DNA from: a virus
Lineage: Duplodnaviria > Heunggongvirae > Uroviricota > Caudoviricetes
Strand: one strand, 5' to 3'
Virus record (IMG/VR): IMGVR_UViG_2585427743_000008
DNA: 16,822 nucleotides
Below are positions 1-9,371 of the stretch, piece by piece. The position numbers and the translations under genes are program-made. How positions within the stretch are numbered: the first letter of the stretch is position 1; each line of letters begins with the position of its first letter. The notes beneath the pieces are model-generated. The model was not told the origin of the DNA. It saw only the letters and a program-made list of their open reading frames with translations, and did not search any database.

Positions 1-1559
1 CAGATCAACTTTCCAGGGCAACAGATCGCGTACCCGGTTTGCCGGCCAGTCCTGGATATGTTCAATGACGTAACGCAGCCACTTTTCTGGCTCCACATTG
101 TTCAGACGGCATGTGCCGATCAGCGAGTACAACACCGCCGCATGTTCACCACCGCTGTCGGAACCCGCGAACATCCAGTTTTTCCGGCCTACGGCCACTC
201 CCCGTAAGGCGTTCTCTGCGATGTTGTTGTCGATTTCCACCCAGCCATTACTGCAGTACACGTTCAGTGCATCCCACTGTTTCAGCAGGTATGCGAACGC
301 TTTTGCCGTATCTGAGTGACGCGACAGTGTTTTCATCTGTTGCTGTATCCAGTCATACAGTGACTGCATCAGTGGCGCGGCTCTGGCTTTTCTTGCCGCC
401 AGACGCTGTTCTGCTGAACAGCCCCGGACCTCTGCCTCGATGGCATACAGTTCACCGATACGCTGCAGGGCTTCCGTGGTGATGTAGGTGGGCGCTCTTG
501 CATGCACATCGTGGATTTTTCTCCGGGCATGAGCCATACACGCGGCTTCCGTTATTCTGCCGGATTCGTATAACGCCCGGTAACCACCGTAAGCATCGGC
601 CTGAAGCACACCGCTGTAACCGGCCGGTGATTTTGTGGATGGATACCTTTCCGGTCCGGACTGTACGCGAACCAGACCGCCGGGGGCATCTGTGAACCGG
701 CGTTACGGTCATCACGGACGTAGACCCACAGCCGGGCTGTCCGGGTTTTACCGCTGCCCGGCTCCTGGACCGGGACGGGGATATCATCAGCATGGACTTT
801 ACCGGGCATCAGCACATACTGGCGCAGGACGTCATACAGCGGCTCCAGCAGTTCAGCAACAGCACCTGTCCAGCGCCCCAGTGTGGCACGGCTCAGCTCC
901 ACTCCCTGACGACGGTATATTTCTGACTGGCGGTATAACGGCAGATGGTCTGCATATTTCCCGGTGACAACATGGGCCAGAAGCCCCGCTCCGGCATAAC
1001 TGCGTGCAATGGGTTTTGAAGGTACTGGTGCCTGCACGATATGGTCGCACCGGCAACAGGCCTGTTTCGGACGTTGTGTTTCGATAACCTTAAAGGCGCT
1101 GCTGATAAGCTCCAGTTGCTCTGACACATCACATCCCAGAGAACTGAGTTCACCACCACAGGCAGGACAGCATTCCTCTTCCGGCCGGATAACCCGGGTT
1201 TCACGGGGAAGTGAGGCCGGTAACGGTTTACGGGCTGAAGACTGGCGCAGGGCGGATGGCAGTACCGGGTCATATTGCTCACCCAGCGTTTCCGCCATTT
1301 CTTCCTGAAGTGCGCTGATTCGCTCCTGTGCTTCCTGTATCTGCCGTTCGGTTTTTGCACGAAGTTTTTCTGAGCTTTTACCGAACTGCATACGTTGCAG
1401 TTTCGCAACCAGCGCCTTCAGCCGGTTGATTTCGGAAGCATAAGCCGCCACCCGCTGTGAGAGCAGGCGGTTGTATTCAGCCATCTGGCGGATGGTGTCC
1501 TGTTGCGTCTGCAACAGTGCCCGCAGGCGGGCGTTCTCATGAGCAAGTGAGGTGTCCAT
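1..1559 (-). pseudogene. IS66-family transposase TnpC, disrupted by an apparent single-base frameshift near 620-635; C-terminus lies beyond base 1
   Basis: ORF 552-1559 encodes the TnpC N-terminal region (leucine-zipper-like start, CxxC...CxxC zinc-finger-like segment ECCPACGG...CCRCDH) and ends shortly after ...[16 protein letters not shown]. The conserved continuation (...[21 protein letters not shown]...[30 protein letters not shown]...) is in a different frame from ~626 down to base 1. Confidence 0.75.
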
Positions 1560-1578
1560 ATCCTCACTTTACAACGGG

Positions 1579-1926
1579 TTATATGCGGATTCCAGCGCGT
1601 TCCGTTCGTTTCGGGTGCTTCCAGTTGATACCTTCAAGAAGCATGGATAACTGAGCCGGAGTAAGGTGCACCTTGCCGTCACGGGTGACTGGCCAGACGA
1701 AGCGGCCCCGCTCCAGGCGTTTGGTGAAGAGGCACAGTCCGTCACTGTCAGCCCACAACACTTTTATCTGGTCACCCCGGCGTCCGCGGAAGATGAACAG
1801 GTGTCCGGAGAACGGGTCATCCTTCAGGACGTTCTGAACTTTTGATGCCAGGCCGTTAAAGCCATTTCGCATATCGGTGATACCTGCAACCAGCCAGATA
1901 CGCGAACCTGCAGGGAGAGATATCAT
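1579..1926 (-). CDS. IS66-family accessory protein TnpB (Orf2)
   Basis: 115-aa ORF of typical size and position for IS66 Orf2; start overlaps the tnpA stop by one base. Confidence 0.88.
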   Translation of the reverse strand: MISLPAGSRIWLVAGITDMRNGFNGLASKVQNVLKDDPFSGHLFIFRGRRGDQIKVLWADSDGLCLFTKRLERGRFVWPVTRDGKVHLTPAQLSMLLEGINWKHPKRTERAGIRI

Positions 1927-2603
1927 CAGTGGCTGCTCCCTTTTATTTCGCGGATAAGTGTCTGTAATAACGCCGGCGTCAGTTTACCTTTAAGCCTGAG
2001 AGTTCCGGCCGGCAGAACCAGCTCACAACACAGACTGTCGGGCGGGGTATTTATCTGCTCTGGTTCCTGTGCGGGGGCCGGGATTTTATTATCCGGCTCC
2101 GGCGTTAACGTCACGGGAAGCAGTGCCGGCATATTTTTTCCGGAAGGCAGCAGGCCACCTTTCCGGTATTGATGGCGCCAGTTGAAGAGCAGGTTATCGT
2201 TGATTCCGTTTTCCCGGGCGATCTGCGCCACACAGGCTCCGGGCTGCAGTGACTGCTCCACTAAGGCGATTTTAAACTCATAAGGGAAGTTGGGCCGCCG
2301 GGGACGTTTTTTTACCACGGGGGCTTCGGATATAACGGTGCTTTCAGGACGTACGACTGGTACCGTGGAAAATTGTCCGTAAAGGCAGGCATCAAGTTCC
2401 TGCTCCGACATGCCTGCGGGCAAAGGCCACGAAAGGCCAGCTCTCCGAAAGCGCACGAACATACTACAAACAGTTGATTTTGGTACACCCAGGCGACGCC
2501 CGGCCACAACCCGGGGTAAATGTTCTTCAAAGTGAAGACGTAAAGCTTCAGTGATCCAGGTCCGGTGTTTCATACGATAGTGTCCATTAAAAATGATGGA
2601 CAT
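1926..2603 (-). CDS. IS66-family TnpA (Orf1) with an N-terminal extension carrying an extra HTH-like segment
   Basis: The C-terminal half (...FPYEFKIALVEQSLQPGACVAQIARENGINDNLLFNWRHQYRKG...) resembles the IS66 Orf1 HTH. At 225 aa it is longer than I expect for Orf1; an alternative start at MKHRTW (2573) is possible. Confidence 0.75.
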   Translation of the reverse strand: MSIIFNGHYRMKHRTWITEALRLHFEEHLPRVVAGRRLGVPKSTVCSMFVRFRRAGLSWPLPAGMSEQELDACLYGQFSTVPVVRPESTVISEAPVVKKRPRRPNFPYEFKIALVEQSLQPGACVAQIARENGINDNLLFNWRHQYRKGGLLPSGKNMPALLPVTLTPEPDNKIPAPAQEPEQINTPPDSLCCELVLPAGTLRLKGKLTPALLQTLIREIKGSSH

Positions 2604-2639
2604 TATTTTTGTAGAGCCGGAGGAAACAGACCAGACGGT

Positions 2640-3158
2640 TTAAATGAGCCGGTTACGTGTCACCTGCAAGATGTATTCATGCTCGACAGCCAGGACACGC
2701 TTCTCTTTCTTCCGTTCGTTCATTAACCGACTGCCGATCGTACCTTTCAGCTTTGAGCGTGTTTCTTTGATGGCGTAGCGGTGCTGCATTTCTTCGCCAA
2801 TTGCCATGCGGCGGCTCAGTTGTTCTGCCATCCAGTTGAATGCTGCGATATAGCTCTCCTTGATTGCCGCAGCAGCTTTCCCGGTGAACCCCATCACAAC
2901 CATGATCCAGCCATCTTTCGTCAGGCTGTACATCGGGCGAACCTTGCCCTGCTCATCGATATAATCAGCCGACGCAAAATTGCGTTGGCTAAACTCACGC
3001 GAGCAATCAGCCTTAACCTGCTCGATTTTCCTGAGAACATCACCGTGTCGCTTGCCGAAGTACTTGGCAATTTTTCTGGATGTGGTAACGACCTCTCCGT
3101 TTTTGGCTTGCACCATTTCTCGGAAGTCGAAGGCTGGAATAACTGAATGATTATTCAT
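2640..3158 (-). CDS. phage regulatory protein, Rha-like (antirepressor-type)
   Basis: Start taken at the internal MNNHSV (ATG 3158-3156), preceded by an AAGG-containing RBS; the 253-aa track ORF has an implausible N-terminal extension. The N-terminal region (VTTSRKIAKYFGKRHGDVLRKIE...MYSLTKDGWIMVVMGFTGKAA) looks like the Rha domain. The 3' end abuts the IS66 element and may be altered by it. Confidence 0.6.
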   Translation of the reverse strand: MNNHSVIPAFDFREMVQAKNGEVVTTSRKIAKYFGKRHGDVLRKIEQVKADCSREFSQRNFASADYIDEQGKVRPMYSLTKDGWIMVVMGFTGKAAAAIKESYIAAFNWMAEQLSRRMAIGEEMQHRYAIKETRSKLKGTIGSRLMNERKKEKRVLAVEHEYILQVTRNRLI

Positions 3159-3500
3159 AGCGTCTTTACCTTTTAGAAAGTGAGCCTGTCTCACAGAAAA
3201 GCCGCCCGAGAGAGGTCGCCACCTATAACGGCATTTCTCAGGCTCGCTTACTGAAAGGCTCTCGTTAATATGCGCGTGAGATGCGCTGTGAAATTCAGAT
3301 ATAAAAAGCCCCGCGAATGCGAGGCTAAATCCTGGTATTTGTAATGAACTGGCTCTTATCTCAACGCAGCCCCTTACTGCGCGCCAGATGCTCAATATCA
3401 AGCATCAGCAATGAGATGTTTAATCTGGATTTACTCCAGAAGTGATCACCACCCTGTCTACAGAGCCAGATGTGAAGGATGATGAGTAAAATTATCGCTA

Positions 3501-3968
3501 TCATCGAAGGCATTGCGTCCTAATGTATTCCTGAAGCGTTCTCAGTGCTGTTTGGTCGCGGATAATTCCGTCCCGGATATCGAGAACGTTTCGTCCAGCA
3601 ACTGGAGAGAGTTCGACGGTGGCATCATTGCCCATGCCGGAGGCGCTGGAGGTTTCGGCAGAGGATGGCACAGGGCATTTTCCTTTGACGAGCACCCTGC
3701 CACCATTATCAAGCTTCCGCAGAAGAGCATCATTTTCAGCTTTCGCATCAGCTAACTCCTTCGTGTATTTTGCATCGAGCGCAGCAACATCACGCTGACG
3801 CATCTGCATGTCAGTAATTGCCGCGTTCGCCAGCTTCAGTTCTCTGACATTTTTGTCGCGCTGGGCTTTGTAGGTAATGGCGTTATCACGGTAATGATTA
3901 ACAGCCCATGACAGGCAGACGATGATGCAGATAACCAGAGCGGAGATAATCGCGGTTACTCTGTTCAT
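3501..3968 (-). CDS. rzpD: Rz i-spanin (lambdoid lysis cassette)
   Basis: N-terminal signal-anchor followed by a coiled-coil-rich region, closely resembling lambda/phage 21 Rz ([68 protein letters not shown]...). Start ATG overlaps the endolysin stop (ATGA). Confidence 0.85.
3542..3748 (-). CDS. rzoD: Rz1 o-spanin lipoprotein, embedded in the +1 frame of Rz
   Basis: 68-aa ORF wholly inside Rz in another frame, with a lipobox (VAGC) and a Pro-rich segment ([11 protein letters not shown]), the classic Rz1 signature. Confidence 0.75.
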
Positions 3969-4462
3969 TGCTGACCCCACAAACAGATTTCACGCTCAAT
4001 CTCACGACGAGTCATGAGACCTTTCCATTGCTTACCGCCAGCATATGTCCAGCGACGTAGCTGATCACATGCGCCTTTGATATCGCCCTGGTTTATTTTG
4101 CGAAGAAGCGTCGATGTTCTGAAATTGCCAGCACCCACGTTGTAAACGAATGAGTAAAGAGCGCCGCGCATTGTTTCCGGTATATCGACTTTGATGTACG
4201 GGTTAATTTGTCTGGCGACCGTGGCAAGGTCTTTATTCAGGAGGGCTTTGCATTCTGCTTTGGTATACGTTTTACCGAGCATGATGTCTTTTCCTGTATG
4301 CCCGTGACATACAGTCCATACACCAACAATATCTTTGTATGGTATGTAGCTGACACCTTCCAGACCATCGTTACCACTTGGGCCAGTAATTAACACTGAT
4401 GCTATAGCAATTGCTCCGCCACCAATAGCAGCAGCAACGGCTTTTCGTAATGATGGAGGCAT
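3965..4462 (-). CDS. rrrD: SAR endolysin (phage 21 R-like lysozyme)
   Basis: 165-aa ORF with a Gly/Ala-rich weakly hydrophobic N-terminal SAR segment ([20 protein letters not shown]) followed by a lysozyme-like domain; one-base overlap with the holin stop. Confidence 0.9.
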
Positions 4463-4677
4463 TATTCACCTCTCGCAGCCTTGCGCTTATCTTCTTTAAT
4501 CTTGAAATAAAGGTTTGTCAGGTACGTCAGCAGGCCAAATACCAGGCTACCCAGCACACCTATTGCTGCCCACTGTGAGGGCGTGACTTTATCGAGCAGC
4601 TGTAAAAACCAGTAACCGGCACTACCTGCTGAGGTGCCATAGGCGACACCCGTTGTTAACTTATCCATGGATTTCAT
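4462..4677 (-). CDS. essD: pinholin (phage 21 S-like holin) with dual-start motif
   Basis: Start taken at MKSMDKL (Met1 and Met4 dual start as in S21); two TM segments and a charged C-terminus ([13 protein letters not shown]). The track ORF starts 15 codons further upstream (4722). Confidence 0.85.
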
Positions 4678-4802
4678 AACCCCACCTCGCAGACAAAGCG
4701 GGTGTAAATTGAGGGAATACAACGTATCGCAAAAAAGCAGAAACGTAACAGACTCGGAGTCAGTGAATAACTCAGGTATTGGGTTATCAGCTAATATCGA
4801 GA

Positions 4803-4838
4803 CTCAAAAAATGGAAAAACCCGCTCGACGGCGGGTTT
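4803..4838 (-). terminator. intrinsic terminator on the minus strand upstream of the holin; candidate tR'-like element of the late region
   Basis: 8-bp GC-rich stem AAACCCGC / GCGGGTTT (4817-4824 and 4831-4838) with a 6-nt loop; on the minus strand it is followed by TTCCATTTTTTGAG. Confidence 0.5.
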
Positions 4839-5264
4839 AAGCTGTGTGACGAAGTAACCACTCTTAACAGCATAACCAATTTTTTACGTACGTAAACCAC
4901 TAAATGATATTTGCGAGAATGCTACCGAGTATTGAAAACACCACTACAAATACATAAGCAAATCTCAACAAATAACCAACAAATAATTTCCAGCGTTATT
5001 TTTAGCTGGTTTAAATTGAATCTTCAAATTATAGAGCACTTATAAATAACAGCCATTAATATAAATTGGCTAATAGATTTATTTTTATTCAGCCAAGAGC
5101 CATGAATAGGATTCGATAGAAAAAGTTCAGATAAAAATAGAGATCTACTTCACAAATCAAATGAGAAACCAAAACTTACATCTTGAAATAATCACATTGA
5201 TTAGATGAATATTTATCGCGCAGTGACATCATTTTTTAATAATAGTTCAAAAAAAGGGCTCACG

Positions 5265-6347
5265 ATGAAAAAATTAACAGTGGCAATTTCTGCTGTAGCT
5301 GCATCAGTACTGATGGCGATGTCTGCTCAGGCAGCTGAAATTTATAATAAAGACAGTAACAAGCTGGATCTGTACGGGAAAGTTAATGCTAAGCACTACT
5401 TCTCCTCTAATGATGCAGATGATGGTGATACTACTTATGCCCGTCTTGGCTTCAAAGGTGAAACCCAAATCAACGATCAACTGACTGGTTTCGGTCAGTG
5501 GGAATATGAATTCAAAGGCAACCGCGCTGAATCTCAAGGTTCCTCCAAAGATAAAACCCGTCTTGCCTTCGCTGGCCTGAAATTCGGTGACTACGGCTCC
5601 ATCGATTATGGCCGTAACTACGGTGTAGCATACGATATTGGTGCATGGACCGACGTTCTGCCAGAATTCGGTGGCGATACCTGGACCCAAACAGATGTAT
5701 TCATGACTGGTCGCACCACAGGTGTTGCAACTTATCGTAACAATGACTTCTTTGGTCTGGTTGATGGTCTGAACTTTGCTGCTCAGTATCAGGGTAAAAA
5801 TGACCGCACTGACGTAACTGAAGCTAATGGTGATGGTTTCGGTTTCTCCACTACTTATGAGTATGAAGGATTCGGTGTAGGTGCAACCTATGCTAAATCT
5901 GACCGCACTAATAATCAGGTTATCTACGGTAACAACAGCCTGAATGCATCTGGTCAAAATGCTGAAGTATGGGCAGCTGGTCTGAAATATGATGCGAACA
6001 ACATCTATCTGGCTACCACCTATTCTGAAACCCAGAACATGACTGTTTTTGGTAATAACCATATTGCCAACAAAGCACAAAACTTCGAAGCTGTTGCACA
6101 ATATCAGTTCGACTTCGGCCTGCGTCCATCCGTTGCTTACCTGCATTCTAAAGGAAAAGACTTGGGTGTTTGGGGTGATCAGGACCTGGTTGAATATGTT
6201 GATGTAGGTGCAACCTATTACTTCAACAAAAATATGTCCACTTTTGTTGACTACAAAATCAACCTGATTGATAAGAGCGATTTCACGAAAGCATCTGGCG
6301 TTGCTACCGATGATATCGTTGCTGTAGGTATGGTTTACCAGTTCTAA
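5265..6347 (+). CDS. nmpC: general bacterial porin, prophage-associated NmpC/OmpD-like
   Basis: Start taken at [23 protein letters not shown] (Sec signal, AQA cleavage), RBS AAGGG upstream; porin hallmarks include the C-terminal aromatic residue (...VYQF). The 20-codon upstream extension in the track ORF is unlikely. Confidence 0.9.
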
Positions 6348-6362
6348 TTTGATTACTAAAAG

Positions 6363-6445
6363 ATATGTTGTGGGGGGCTTTGCCTCCCCAACATATAAGT
6401 GGCTCCCTCAAGCCACTTCCTTTAGAAGCACAACCTTGCTTCTAA
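6363..6445. other. three consecutive stem-loops in the porin-Q intergenic region
   Basis: Hairpin A 6363-6396 (ATATGTTG...CAACATAT flanking a G-rich core), hairpin B 6397-6418 (AAGTGGCT / AGCCACTT), hairpin C 6422-6445 (TTAGAAGCA / TGCTTCTAA). Confidence 0.45.
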
Positions 6446-6483
6446 CTATACAAACCTTCTGTTATATATTACCCTTTATTTTT

Positions 6484-6518
6484 GGGGGCGTTTCAACGCC
6501 CCATTTTTAATAACTTTT
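6484..6518 (+). terminator. intrinsic terminator, plus strand
   Basis: GGGGCG-TTTCAA-CGCCCC stem-loop followed by ATTTTTAATAACTTTT. Confidence 0.5.
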
Positions 6519-6535
6519 AGTAAATAATTGGCGTA

Positions 6536-6919
6536 TTAATTAGAGTTATTAACAACGATATCCATCTCTAACCGGATATCTAATGCCATTAACATCCCTT
6601 CAATTATGCCCTCAGCCTTCTGTAACCTTTTCCCGATATAACCATCAGAGCAGCAATGCTTACCTGCCAGTGACATGAATGTCATACCGACTACATAATA
6701 ATCTACTAATAAATCGTGCAAATCGCTGTTGTTCTTTTTCAGACGGGCCATGCACCCGCAAATGATCATCGCGTCATCGTCACAACATTGCGGGCGAGAT
6801 TTTACTTTTGAAGTAATTAATCCCTTAAAACCGGCGGCAATGGACGACCAGGTCACATCTTCATGATTATTAGCCGCCCACGCTCCCCAACGCTCAAGAA
6901 CCATCTGAATATCACGCAT
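6536..6919 (-). CDS. quuD: late-gene antiterminator Q (DLP12 QuuD-like)
   Basis: Start taken at [22 protein letters not shown]... (127 aa), recalled as matching the DLP12 Q-family antiterminator; Cys-rich segment ([16 protein letters not shown]) consistent with Q zinc binding. Sits upstream of the lysis genes on the same strand. Confidence 0.75.
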
Positions 6920-7004
6920 CAACTTACTCCACAAAAATCAGACCAGAACGCCAATTACAAGCAAAAATCAACAAAACAGTATTAGTTGATTGTTATCTCT
7001 GACT

Positions 7005-7145
7005 TCATACTCCTGCTCCTGTCAGGGTTTTGGCGTAATTCTTCAGTATTCGGTAATCGGTCAAAACAGAACCGGGGAAACGATATAAGCGCAGACGCCC
7101 CCAGCGGTGGCGAAGACGTCCTGCCATATAAAACTCAAACATCAT
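7005..7145 (-). CDS. ylcG: small prophage protein YlcG-like (46 aa)
   Basis: Below the ORF-track cutoff; found by translating the minus strand ([46 protein letters not shown]). Start ATG overlaps the rusA stop (ATGA). Confidence 0.6.
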
Positions 7146-7504
7146 TCATTCCCCATTTCGGTGATGGTCAGTTCCAGCCTCCCACCTTTGGTAACAGGCA
7201 TCTTCACAACGCGGTAATCAACGACCTGAGCATCATCCAGCCAGAAACCTGCTTTAGTGAGTGCGTCAAAAGCGGCTTTTTGCAGATTATCCAGGTCACG
7301 GCGACGGCGATCCGGCATGTGGCACTCAATGCGGATTTTCACAGGCATAGCCAGGCCGATATCCAGCATTGCGTTTTTAATGATTCGGGCGACGTTATCG
7401 CGGTATGCCTGCCCCTCTGCGCTGACGTGCGTGCGCCCGCGATTATGGCGGTAATAGCGATTATTGCTCGGAGGCCAGGGTAATGTGATGCTGTAGGTAT
7501 TCAC
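7142..7504 (-). CDS. rusA: Holliday junction resolvase RusA
   Basis: 120-aa [49 protein letters not shown]..., recalled as essentially the DLP12 RusA sequence; ATGA coupling with ybcO. Confidence 0.9.
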
Positions 7505-7791
7505 GCCTTAATAACCCCCTCTTTCAGCCAGATAACCTGTGTTCTCGCCATACCTTCCAGCGCGCATTCTTTTGCATATGCAGCATCGACAAAATGAGTG
7601 CGGCGGTCGATTTCGTCGTGGCAGGCAGAACATGCAATGGTGGCAATCAGGTCTGGCGGTTTCGTACCGGTGCCGCACAATCCAGTCAGCCGGATATGTG
7701 CCAGTACAGACGTTTCAGGGTTGCCATTACATACGCCAGGGATTCTTACCTGGCATTCCCGACCACGCGCTGCTTTTCTCAAATCAGCCAT
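7501..7791 (-). CDS. ybcO: YbcO-like prophage protein (DUF1364, Cys-rich putative nuclease)
   Basis: Start taken at [15 protein letters not shown]... with a strong SD (GGAGGAG) 5 nt upstream; 8-nt overlap with ninE. Confidence 0.8.
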
Positions 7792-7954
7792 GACTCCTCC
7801 TTGCTGCCAGTCGCAACCATTTTTTATCAACCAGGCTGGCGGTATATCCGAGCAGTGTTGGTATTTCGGATGGCTTCAGCTCAGGTTTACGCTTACGACG
7901 ATTTGGTACTCTGTAGATGTGTCCGTTCATGACACGAATAAGCGGTGTAGCCAT
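7784..7954 (-). CDS. ninE: NinE-like prophage protein
   Basis: 56-aa product [37 protein letters not shown]... in the nin-region position; start overlaps the ybcN stop by one base. Confidence 0.75.
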   Translation of the reverse strand: MATPLIRVMNGHIYRVPNRRKRKPELKPSEIPTLLGYTASLVDKKWLRLAARRSHG

Positions 7955-8409
7955 TACGCCTCCTGCTTGTCGCGCAGCAGCTGGAACTCGCAGCTCTGTG
8001 GAATAGTCAGGTGGCAACCAATATTCATCGCCCAGGCTTCAACCTTACACAGGAAGACATACATCTCTCCGGTATCAAGATCGGAGGTATGGCGTAACGA
8101 CTGGATAGTGGTGATATCACCGGTTACGACATCAACCAGGTCTTTGGTTTCATAACCGAGATATGTGTGTTTGAGAGCATCTTTTACCCAAGCTGGAGTG
8201 GCGAACGTTTTACCCCTGCTGATGAGGTATTCACTGATTTCGCTGTACCACATGTGGCTGAGTGCATTCTGGGAAAGACTGCGTCTCTCGCACCACGGTT
8301 TAAGCACCATGCGAAAGCATTTGCCTTCCTCCAGATAAGGCTGGATCTGCTGGCCGATAGCGGTGAAGTTGCCGCGATGTAATTTGATGCCGTCTTGTGG
8401 GAGGTTCAC
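7954..8409 (-). CDS. ybcN: NinB/YbcN-like recombination-associated protein
   Basis: 151-aa ORF with a NinB-like core (...[22 protein letters not shown]...) at the head of the nin-like gene run. Confidence 0.8.
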
Positions 8410-8672
8410 GCTTCACCTCCGCAGAGGTCAAACGCTAGATGCAAAGAATTGCAGGTGCATTTCTGCATCTGTGAAAGGAGAAGATAGTTTGGATTGTATG
8501 TGCGCATAAACGTCCCCGTTTAGCGCAGAAGTCACCGGAGTTGTTCAGACTCCGATTACTTAATTATGGCAAGTTGATTATCGCAAATCAAAGGTTTTAA
8601 TTGTGCTTTATTCTTTCAAGCGTTTCCTTCATACCAAAGCCTATAAAGTTTTTCTTCTTCGTTTGGGTTAAT

Positions 8673-8705
8673 GTAAGCGTCAACGGAGCACCGTATTGAC
8701 GCTTA
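8673..8705. repeat. candidate IS66-family terminal inverted repeat with internal 10-bp palindrome
   Basis: GTAAGCGTCAACGGAGCACCGTATTGACGCTTA: begins GTAAGCG, sits at the outer end of the transposase C-terminal fragment, and contains TAAGCGTCAA / TTGACGCTTA separated by 12 nt. Confidence 0.4.
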
Positions 8706-9371
8706 TTTATTGGTGAGTACTACGTTCCATGGCAGGAGTTCGTCAACACGGTTGGAGGGCCATTCCGGCAGTACGCTCAGAATATGGCGCAGATACGCTT
8801 CCGGATCGATACCGTTCAGTCGGCAGGTGCCGATCAGCCCGTACAGCAGTGCTCCACGCTCGCCGCCGTGATCGCTACCGAAGAACACGTAATTTTTCTT
8901 TCCGAGACAGACTGCACGAAGCGCTCTTTCCGCTGTGTTATTGTCCACCTCCGCCAGACCGTCATCACTGTAATAACAGAGGGCGTCCCACACAGCCTGA
9001 CGTTTGACTTCTGGTTCAAAGGGCGCAACCGGACTGGTCTTACTGGTAAATATACGTCGTCTGCCGGGATAAAGTTCATTAACCCAGCGAGCGAGCACAT
9101 CAGTGCAGGGATAACCCAGGGCTCTGCTGGTAAACGCCAGGCAGCAGCCGTGGTTAAGATAATGTTCAACGGCAACCTGTTTTTGCTCATCGGAGTAACG
9201 GTGCTTATGACGAATGGATTCTTTTGCGCCATCACCTGCTTTCCATGAACGGATCCAACGCCGCAGATTTCTTTTCGAAGGGTAGCCCGGCTCGCGTACG
9301 ACGAGAGCCAGCTTCTTACCATATTTGAAATAAAGCTCAATGGTGCGGATTTTTTCTTCCTCCGTAAACAT
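8703..9371 (-). pseudogene. chimeric ORF: IS66-family transposase C-terminal fragment (~8703-9000) fused in frame to an unrelated N-terminal double-HTH transposase-like segment (~9000-9371)
   Basis: The C-terminal ~100 aa ([89 protein letters not shown]) aligns by eye with the IS66 TnpC C-terminus seen at 1-450 but is clearly divergent. The N-terminal ~120 aa (MFTEEEKIRTIELYFKYGKK...RNLRRWIRSW...) is not IS66 TnpC-like. Confidence 0.6.

Follow-up and report, generated by a model that had tools for sequence, protein, structure and literature searches.

An in-frame IS3–IS66 chimera beside cexE-aat in an Escherichia coli draft contig is probably insertion sequence debris joined during assembly

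The window, by which we mean the whole stretch of DNA analysed here, is a complete draft contig of 16,822 bp from E. coli 6-319-05_S1_C3 (assembly GCA_000713015.1). It carries a prophage segment on one side, genes resembling a secretion system on the other, and a set of insertion sequence (IS) fragments in between. The features, with the basis for each where one applies, are as follows.

1–2656, minus strand: an ISCro1 copy (IS66 family) truncated where the contig ends; left inverted repeat at 2656 (comparison with intact copies).
2657–8672: lambdoid (DLP12-like) prophage segment with rha, lysis genes, porin, Q, rusA, ninE and ybcN (comparison with strain 120899).
8673–8991, minus strand: the final 319 bp of an ISEc47-family (IS66 family) element, right inverted repeat included (319/319 against p120899_146).
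8673–8705: IS66-type right inverted repeat, beginning GTAAGCG and containing a 10-bp hairpin (sequence and folding).
8703–9371, minus strand: open frame of 222 amino acids, made of IS3-family OrfA residues 1–127 and ISEc47 TnpC residues 443–537.
8947–8989: the patch, the one stretch in which window and complete ETEC plasmids disagree; ISEc47 sequence in the window (plasmid comparison).
8992–9371, minus strand: IS3-family orfA codons 1–127, with two HTH motifs, no leucine zipper and no DDE domain (DNA and protein comparison).
9372–9411, minus strand: IS3-family 5' leader and a mutated, short remnant of the left inverted repeat (comparison with L005, L006, L011 and L013).
9526–9876: protein of 116 amino acids, CexE/Aat region.
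CexE/Aat region: a permease-sized protein of 379 amino acids, a TolC/OEP-like protein of 401, an adaptor-like protein of 257 and an ABC ATPase of 208.
CexE/Aat region, opposite strand: protein of 414 amino acids with weak similarity to Lnt (aatD-like).

The genes at 9526–16134 resemble the CexE/Aat lipoprotein secretion system of ETEC. In the window cexE lies about 280 bp upstream of aatP, which is one of the arrangements described in PMC7943197.

The open frame, the GTAAGCG terminus at 8673 and the 10-bp palindrome over the stop codon, all reported in the initial annotation, are present in the sequence as given. That annotation also described the frame as chimeric, with an HTH region foreign to IS66 joined to a tnpC tail of that family. 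Profile matches bear this out and assign the HTH part to the IS3 family. Residues 2–51 match Pfam HTH_Tnp_1 (34.2 bits; cut-off 24.1), which is an IS3-family DNA-binding domain, and residues 62–109 match the beginning of the IS3 transposase model NF033516. Residues 128–222 are the final 95 codons of an IS66-family tnpC: residues 126–171 align with only the final 46 positions (238–283) of the 284-position DDE_Tnp_IS66 model, and residues 179–215 match DDE_Tnp_IS66_C, the IS66 C-terminal element. The complete DDE_Tnp_IS66 catalytic domain is absent from the frame (NF033517: 87.1 bits, cut-off 180), as are the IS3 leucine zipper, the frameshift site and the rve DDE domain (NF033516: 34.9, cut-off 160). 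LZ_Tnp_IS66, zf-IS66, tnpA and tnpB are found neither in the frame nor in 8992–9500, which is IS3-family sequence. Of the TG...CA inverted repeats of the IS3 family, the left one is mutated at this locus and the right one is missing.

Could the frame nevertheless be a domesticated regulator, built from an IS3 HTH pair and an IS66 C-terminal element? It is open in the contig and retains the native IS3 start codon and leader. However, the exact protein (KEM31674.1/WP_077760994.1) is recorded on one contig only, JORE01000030.1, in a search space of about 15 billion proteins, the version carried by its relatives is broken, the leucine-zipper region of OrfA seen in P0006 and P0010 is missing, and a promoter scan upstream found nothing. 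We regard such a regulator as extremely improbable. The initial annotation would have been overturned by a conserved family of full-length 222-residue proteins; no such family was found in independent genomes, where the best matches cover 57–59% (IS3 part) or 43% (IS66 part) of the protein and at most 77%. Because the IS66 catalytic domain (bar its last helix region), the IS3 leucine zipper and the DDE domain are all absent, and because the protein is not conserved, the frame is predicted to have no function and, in agreement with the earlier opinion, not to encode a functional transposase.

The IS66 tail was originally thought to be divergent. It is not: 8673–8991 is identical at all 319 positions to the 3' end of an intact ISEc47-family element on p120899_146 (L010 3377–3695), and is 98% identical to ISEc43 (L006) and 94.7% identical to ISEc23 (L005, strain H105). 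With this element (p120899_146, WP_001744949.1; close relatives ISEc23 and ISEc43) the locus shares TnpC residues 443–537, the stop codon, the hairpin and the GTAAGCG repeat. In contrast to the intact element, it keeps 319 of about 2,541 bp and lacks tnpA, tnpB, the zinc finger, most of the DDE domain and the left end; the right end at 8673 has no matching left end to its right.

The outer end had been proposed to be an IS66-family inverted repeat and is a genuine one: the GTAAGCGTCAACGGAGCACCGTATTGACGCTTA right end is the same in ISEc23, ISEc43 and ISEc47. The hairpin stems at 8674–8683 (TAAGCGTCAA) and 8696–8705 (TTGACGCTTA) are perfect complements, and the hairpin overlaps the tnpC stop codon, which is the complement of 8703–8705. 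On the mRNA strand it folds with −17 kcal/mol (z = −5.2), as good a value being reached by none of 200 shuffles; the hairpin is thus beyond chance. ISCro1 and the other IS66-family element of ETEC plasmids have GTAAGCG and CCGTATTGA without the palindrome. Judging from these comparisons, the hairpin is a clade-specific trait of the right inverted repeat that was not made at this locus. We considered an intrinsic terminator and rejected it, since no T-run follows the hairpin and a scan finds no terminator at 8673–8705. A putative role as a 3' stabiliser of the mRNA or as a transposase-binding feature is only a guess.

The remainder of the frame comes from a double-HTH element of the IS3 family that PGAP leaves unnamed (H105, L005 3815–5421; E600003, L011 880–2540). 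Positions 8992–9406 are 95.9% identical in DNA to the 5' end of the near-full-length copy in H105, and the encoded protein is 92% identical to P0005, P0006 and P0010, which run on with ...QAVMALCTRQ.... Since the intact relatives run on with ...PEVKRQAVMALCTRQ..., the break falls after orfA codon 127, before the coiled-coil region that is present in P0006 and P0010. The locus shares the leader and codons 1–127 with the element; compared with it, the locus lacks the leucine zipper, orfB with its DDE domain and the right end, and what it has of the left repeat is short and mutated. H105 also has an IS3-family element adjacent to ISEc23, which we considered as the ancestral arrangement. Its order and orientation are wrong, and H105 was used as a source of parental sequence only.

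Copies of this IS3-family element seemingly have two types of end (L005 3815–3828 and 5409–5421, as against L011 880–933 and 2488–2540). One is a short repeat ending ...GTCCGCATCCCCA and the other extends 26 nt further, to ...GGCGTTGACA; reading inward from the outside, each starts with TG. Many E. coli chromosomes and plasmids also carry, alone and unannotated, a unit of about 47 nt with 87% identity to the long inverted repeat (GGAATCGTCCGCATCCCCATAACGG...GGCGTTGACA; e.g., L012 2483–2541 and L013 2490–2545; about 726 E. coli records). Its appearance is that of a solo remnant of the inverted repeat with a wide distribution.

Is the joined frame found in other genomes? Positions 8671–16822 are 99.7% identical to plasmids of about 145 kb in ETEC strains 120899, 602354, 103605, 204446, 504237, ETEC-2265 and TW10722, with two differences in 7 kb when the patch is left aside. 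The IS scar located upstream of cexE in p120899_146 (within about 110,700–111,100), p602354_148 and pTW10722_36 has the same IS3 breakpoint, the same tail and the same downstream cexE-aat genes as the window. In the plasmids, however, the patch is shorter by 10 nt, the halves do not share a frame, and PGAP annotates them as two pseudogenes (CXW56_RS26205 and CXW56_RS26210); the outer flank (ATCGAAAGTTGA...) also differs. The same breakpoint with the 10-nt-shorter patch is present in at least 8 complete genomes and in 13 PLSDB plasmids. An out-of-frame ORF of 175 amino acids from the plasmid version occurs in 65 contigs, as against one contig for the 222-residue ORF.

What fills the plasmid patch is the end of an IS3-family element. 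The order in the plasmid scar is IS3 orfA codons 1–127, the outer 39–40 nt of an IS3-family terminal repeat, and an ISEc47-like tail of 277 bp. On the window strand the 39-nt core of the patch is GTCCGCATCC...GGCGTTGAC, two edge bases of which are common to the window. The repeat terminus within the scar reads TGTCAACGCC...GGATGCGGAC, and its tip abuts orfA as an insertion junction would; the ISEc47-like tail joins the inner part of the repeat at a GGAC microhomology. The plasmid-type patch includes TCAACGCCAAGATTATTGGCCG, and orfA codon 127 is followed there by TCAACGCCAAGATTATTGGCCGTTTTGGGGATGC, while in the window GGCTGTG leads directly to TGGGACGCC. The core is 100% identical to the terminus of the IS3-family element in E600003, where it lies between the transposase gene, which it follows directly, and IS100. 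Both ends of that element carry it, and in pAA of strain 042 it forms the left end. Within the loci we retrieved, the IS3 repeat is the only lead to a templated copy of the plasmid patch. We also considered the reverse, the window patch being ancestral and the plasmid patch a mutated IS66 sequence. This was rejected, as the plasmid patch exactly matches an IS3-family repeat terminus that hundreds of genomes contain. Outside the patch, the base equivalent to 8820 is A in the plasmid scar and T, the ISEc47 base, in the window.

These comparisons bear on the origin first proposed, a single IS-mediated deletion or recombination that joined a double-HTH gene straight to a divergent IS66 tnpC where prophage and island meet. 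The chimeric domain architecture is what such an event would give, and all relatives have the tail next to the IS3 fragment. However, in every complete relative the outer 39 nt of the IS3 repeat lie between the parts and put them out of frame, which calls for at least two events and leaves no direct fusion. The tail is not divergent, and plasmids in strains from The Gambia, Bangladesh and Guinea-Bissau already have the scar, bordered there by another outer flank. A one-step fusion is therefore very unlikely. The scar may instead have arisen when a second IS3-family copy inserted into the first and a later illegitimate deletion ran from inside the second IS3 repeat into an ISEc47-like tnpC. The ISEc47 tnpC segment (window 8943–8991) resembles the IS3 repeat (L011 2501–2540) at both edges (GTCC.C.TCC.CCA.A.CG and GGCGT..AC). 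This likeness may have favoured the original illegitimate join, and it may also confuse aligners.

Two other proteins, P0020 and P0030, are chimeras of a related kind. They join the N-terminus of IS66 tnpA to the same tnpC tail, and as in our frame an HTH is followed by ...WDALCYYSDDG...IS66_C. Unlike the IS3::IS66 frame, both are internal deletions of a single IS66 element. The P0020 fusion falls at the same Trp codon of the tnpC tail. We considered this 'V|WDAL' junction as a recombination hot spot and set the idea aside: the junction holds an N (L014 3237, in a genome record described as 'complete'), and the deletion is internal to IS66.

On the other side of the IS66 end, 2657–8672 matches the ETEC 120899 chromosome at 99.96–100% identity; the chromosomal sequence goes on without a break beyond the equivalent of 8672. 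The join between the prophage and an IS66 end, and the window-type junction, are found in none of 5,426 complete E. coli genomes and in none of the PLSDB plasmids. The 8672/8673 junction coincides exactly with the IS66 terminus and is probably due to a real insertion of ISEc47 into this strain's prophage. A complete prophage copy would have its left end followed by GGGTTAAT AGGCTCACC, as for an insertion that duplicates 8 bp. On p120899_146 the intact ISEc47 has a truncated traP on one side, an ANR-family regulator gene on the other and no 8-bp target duplication (L010 1143–1154 and 3696–3707; flanks GAAATTAC and TGACAACT), which suggests that this copy mediated a rearrangement itself.

The IS66 copy at 1–2656 is ISCro1 on the minus strand, in the same orientation as the tail, as had been noted. 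Its tnpC is broken, relative to intact copies, by a 1-nt deletion at 626 into frames of 335 and 179 amino acids. The contig L015 from a clonal sister lacks this deletion, which may be another assembly error. ISCro1 lies in the 3' end of rha in the window and is missing at that place in 120899; the 120899 prophage has IS100 (L009 2342–4297) where window positions 3276–3280 form an empty site with a 5-bp overlap. The idea that the prophage is bracketed by IS66-family ends is not supported: the two ends belong to different elements, ISCro1 and ISEc47, about 69% identical. A composite transposon was considered and rejected on this ground, and also because the second element is a 319-bp stub and the adjacency is doubtful.

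A sister colony, C1, of the same sample matches the window over 16.6 kb except for the patch and two other bases. In the C1 assembly (GCA_000713335.1) two contigs, 32 and 182, share 8,145 bp comprising aat, the IS3 fragment, the tail and the right repeat. They part exactly at the IS66 end: one leads into the prophage, like the window, and the other into ANR, SNase and Hha genes, which are the flank of intact ISEc47 in eight complete plasmids (100% identity). The three clonal contigs differ in the patch as follows.

C1 contig 32: ISEc47 sequence preceded by 18 nt of IS3 repeat; ORF of 176 amino acids.
C1 contig 182: ISEc47 sequence, with small indels, preceded by 15 nt of IS3 repeat; ORF of 133 amino acids.
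C3 (the window): ISEc47 sequence throughout; ORF of 222 amino acids.

No more than one of the three patches can be correct, and the same holds for the outer flanks. ISEc47 reads could not have supplied the repeat-derived bases in C1, and the IS3 repeat fragment must therefore be really present in the clone. In other draft assemblies the contigs break at this point and give partial proteins of 126–145 amino acids. The C1 draft has the 8.1-kb cexE-aat/IS region twice (L007 and L015, with differences confined to the patch and to the flank past the IS66 end), either as redundant repeat paths or as a real duplication.

We propose that the locus is non-functional IS debris at the edge of a cexE-aat locus of ETEC-plasmid type, and that the form seen in the window was stitched together in the draft assembly; we put the probability of this reading at about 0.8. 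The single frame of 222 amino acids is very probably an assembly artefact, a view drawn from comparing assembled contigs rather than reads. The bases at 8947–8989 that create it are probably not the true sequence of the strain, and the adjacency of prophage and cexE-aat, which probably results from repeat collapse, is unreliable. In the C3 contig, sequence from an ISEc47 copy would have replaced the inverted-repeat fragment; the whole IS66 part would then read as 100% ISEc47, bringing the halves into one frame, and the contig would leave through the ISEc47 right end into the flank of another ISEc47 copy, in the chromosomal prophage. Either repeat collapse or mixing in the assembler's consensus could have done this. 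All three clonal contigs carry the ISEc47 base at 8820 instead of the plasmid-scar base, as would be expected if the consensus of a collapsed repeat were dominated by reads from multi-copy ISEc47. A local alignment of the true scar to ISEc47 reaches only about 15 nt into the patch, so overwriting by the read pile-up is not obviously enough to account for all 49 nt up to the IS3 breakpoint.

The alternative is a real in-frame fusion. The IS3-repeat fragment would then have been replaced through gene conversion or recombination with an ISEc47 copy, and recombination in the tail would have placed cexE-aat beside the prophage ISEc47. Two assemblies show the adjacency (C1 contig 32 and C3 contig 30), as would be the case for a real one, and this counts against an artefact. 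The IS3 junction falls at the very same base as in the plasmids, and the prophage join at the exact IS66 terminus implies that an ISEc47 end truly abuts the prophage in this strain. However, the IS3 side offers no homology in which a conversion tract could be resolved, and crossovers inside the 277-bp homology would spare the plasmid-type patch. Three versions of the patch, with small untidy indels, among clonal contigs also count against it; the same assembly also links the IS66 end to a second flank, and the arrangement is absent from the 5,426 complete genomes. We consider such a replacement unlikely. It is similarly doubtful that the contig is correct as it stands, with a plasmid cexE-aat locus captured in a DLP12-like prophage via ISEc47 and the scar repaired into an open HTH–IS66_C gene of 222 residues.

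The single chimeric gene originally flagged at the prophage/island border is most likely not real. An origin at that border is not supported either, given the plasmid location of the scar, the uninterrupted prophage in the chromosomes of the closest complete relatives and the two flanks in the sister contigs. All the parts come from known elements, i.e., ISEc47 (with its relatives ISEc23 and ISEc43), an IS3-family element and ISCro1, and the scar is already annotated as pseudogenes. Fragments of IS3 and IS66 elements beside ETEC virulence loci are routine and already carry pseudogene annotations, and this one has little biological weight. The RefSeq entry WP_077760994.1 probably exists only through a collapsed repeat in one draft assembly, and the contig's link between prophage and virulence island should not be used as evidence for a chromosomal or phage-borne cexE-aat. 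If the adjacency were true, it would be a modest example of a plasmid virulence locus carried into a prophage by way of IS66.
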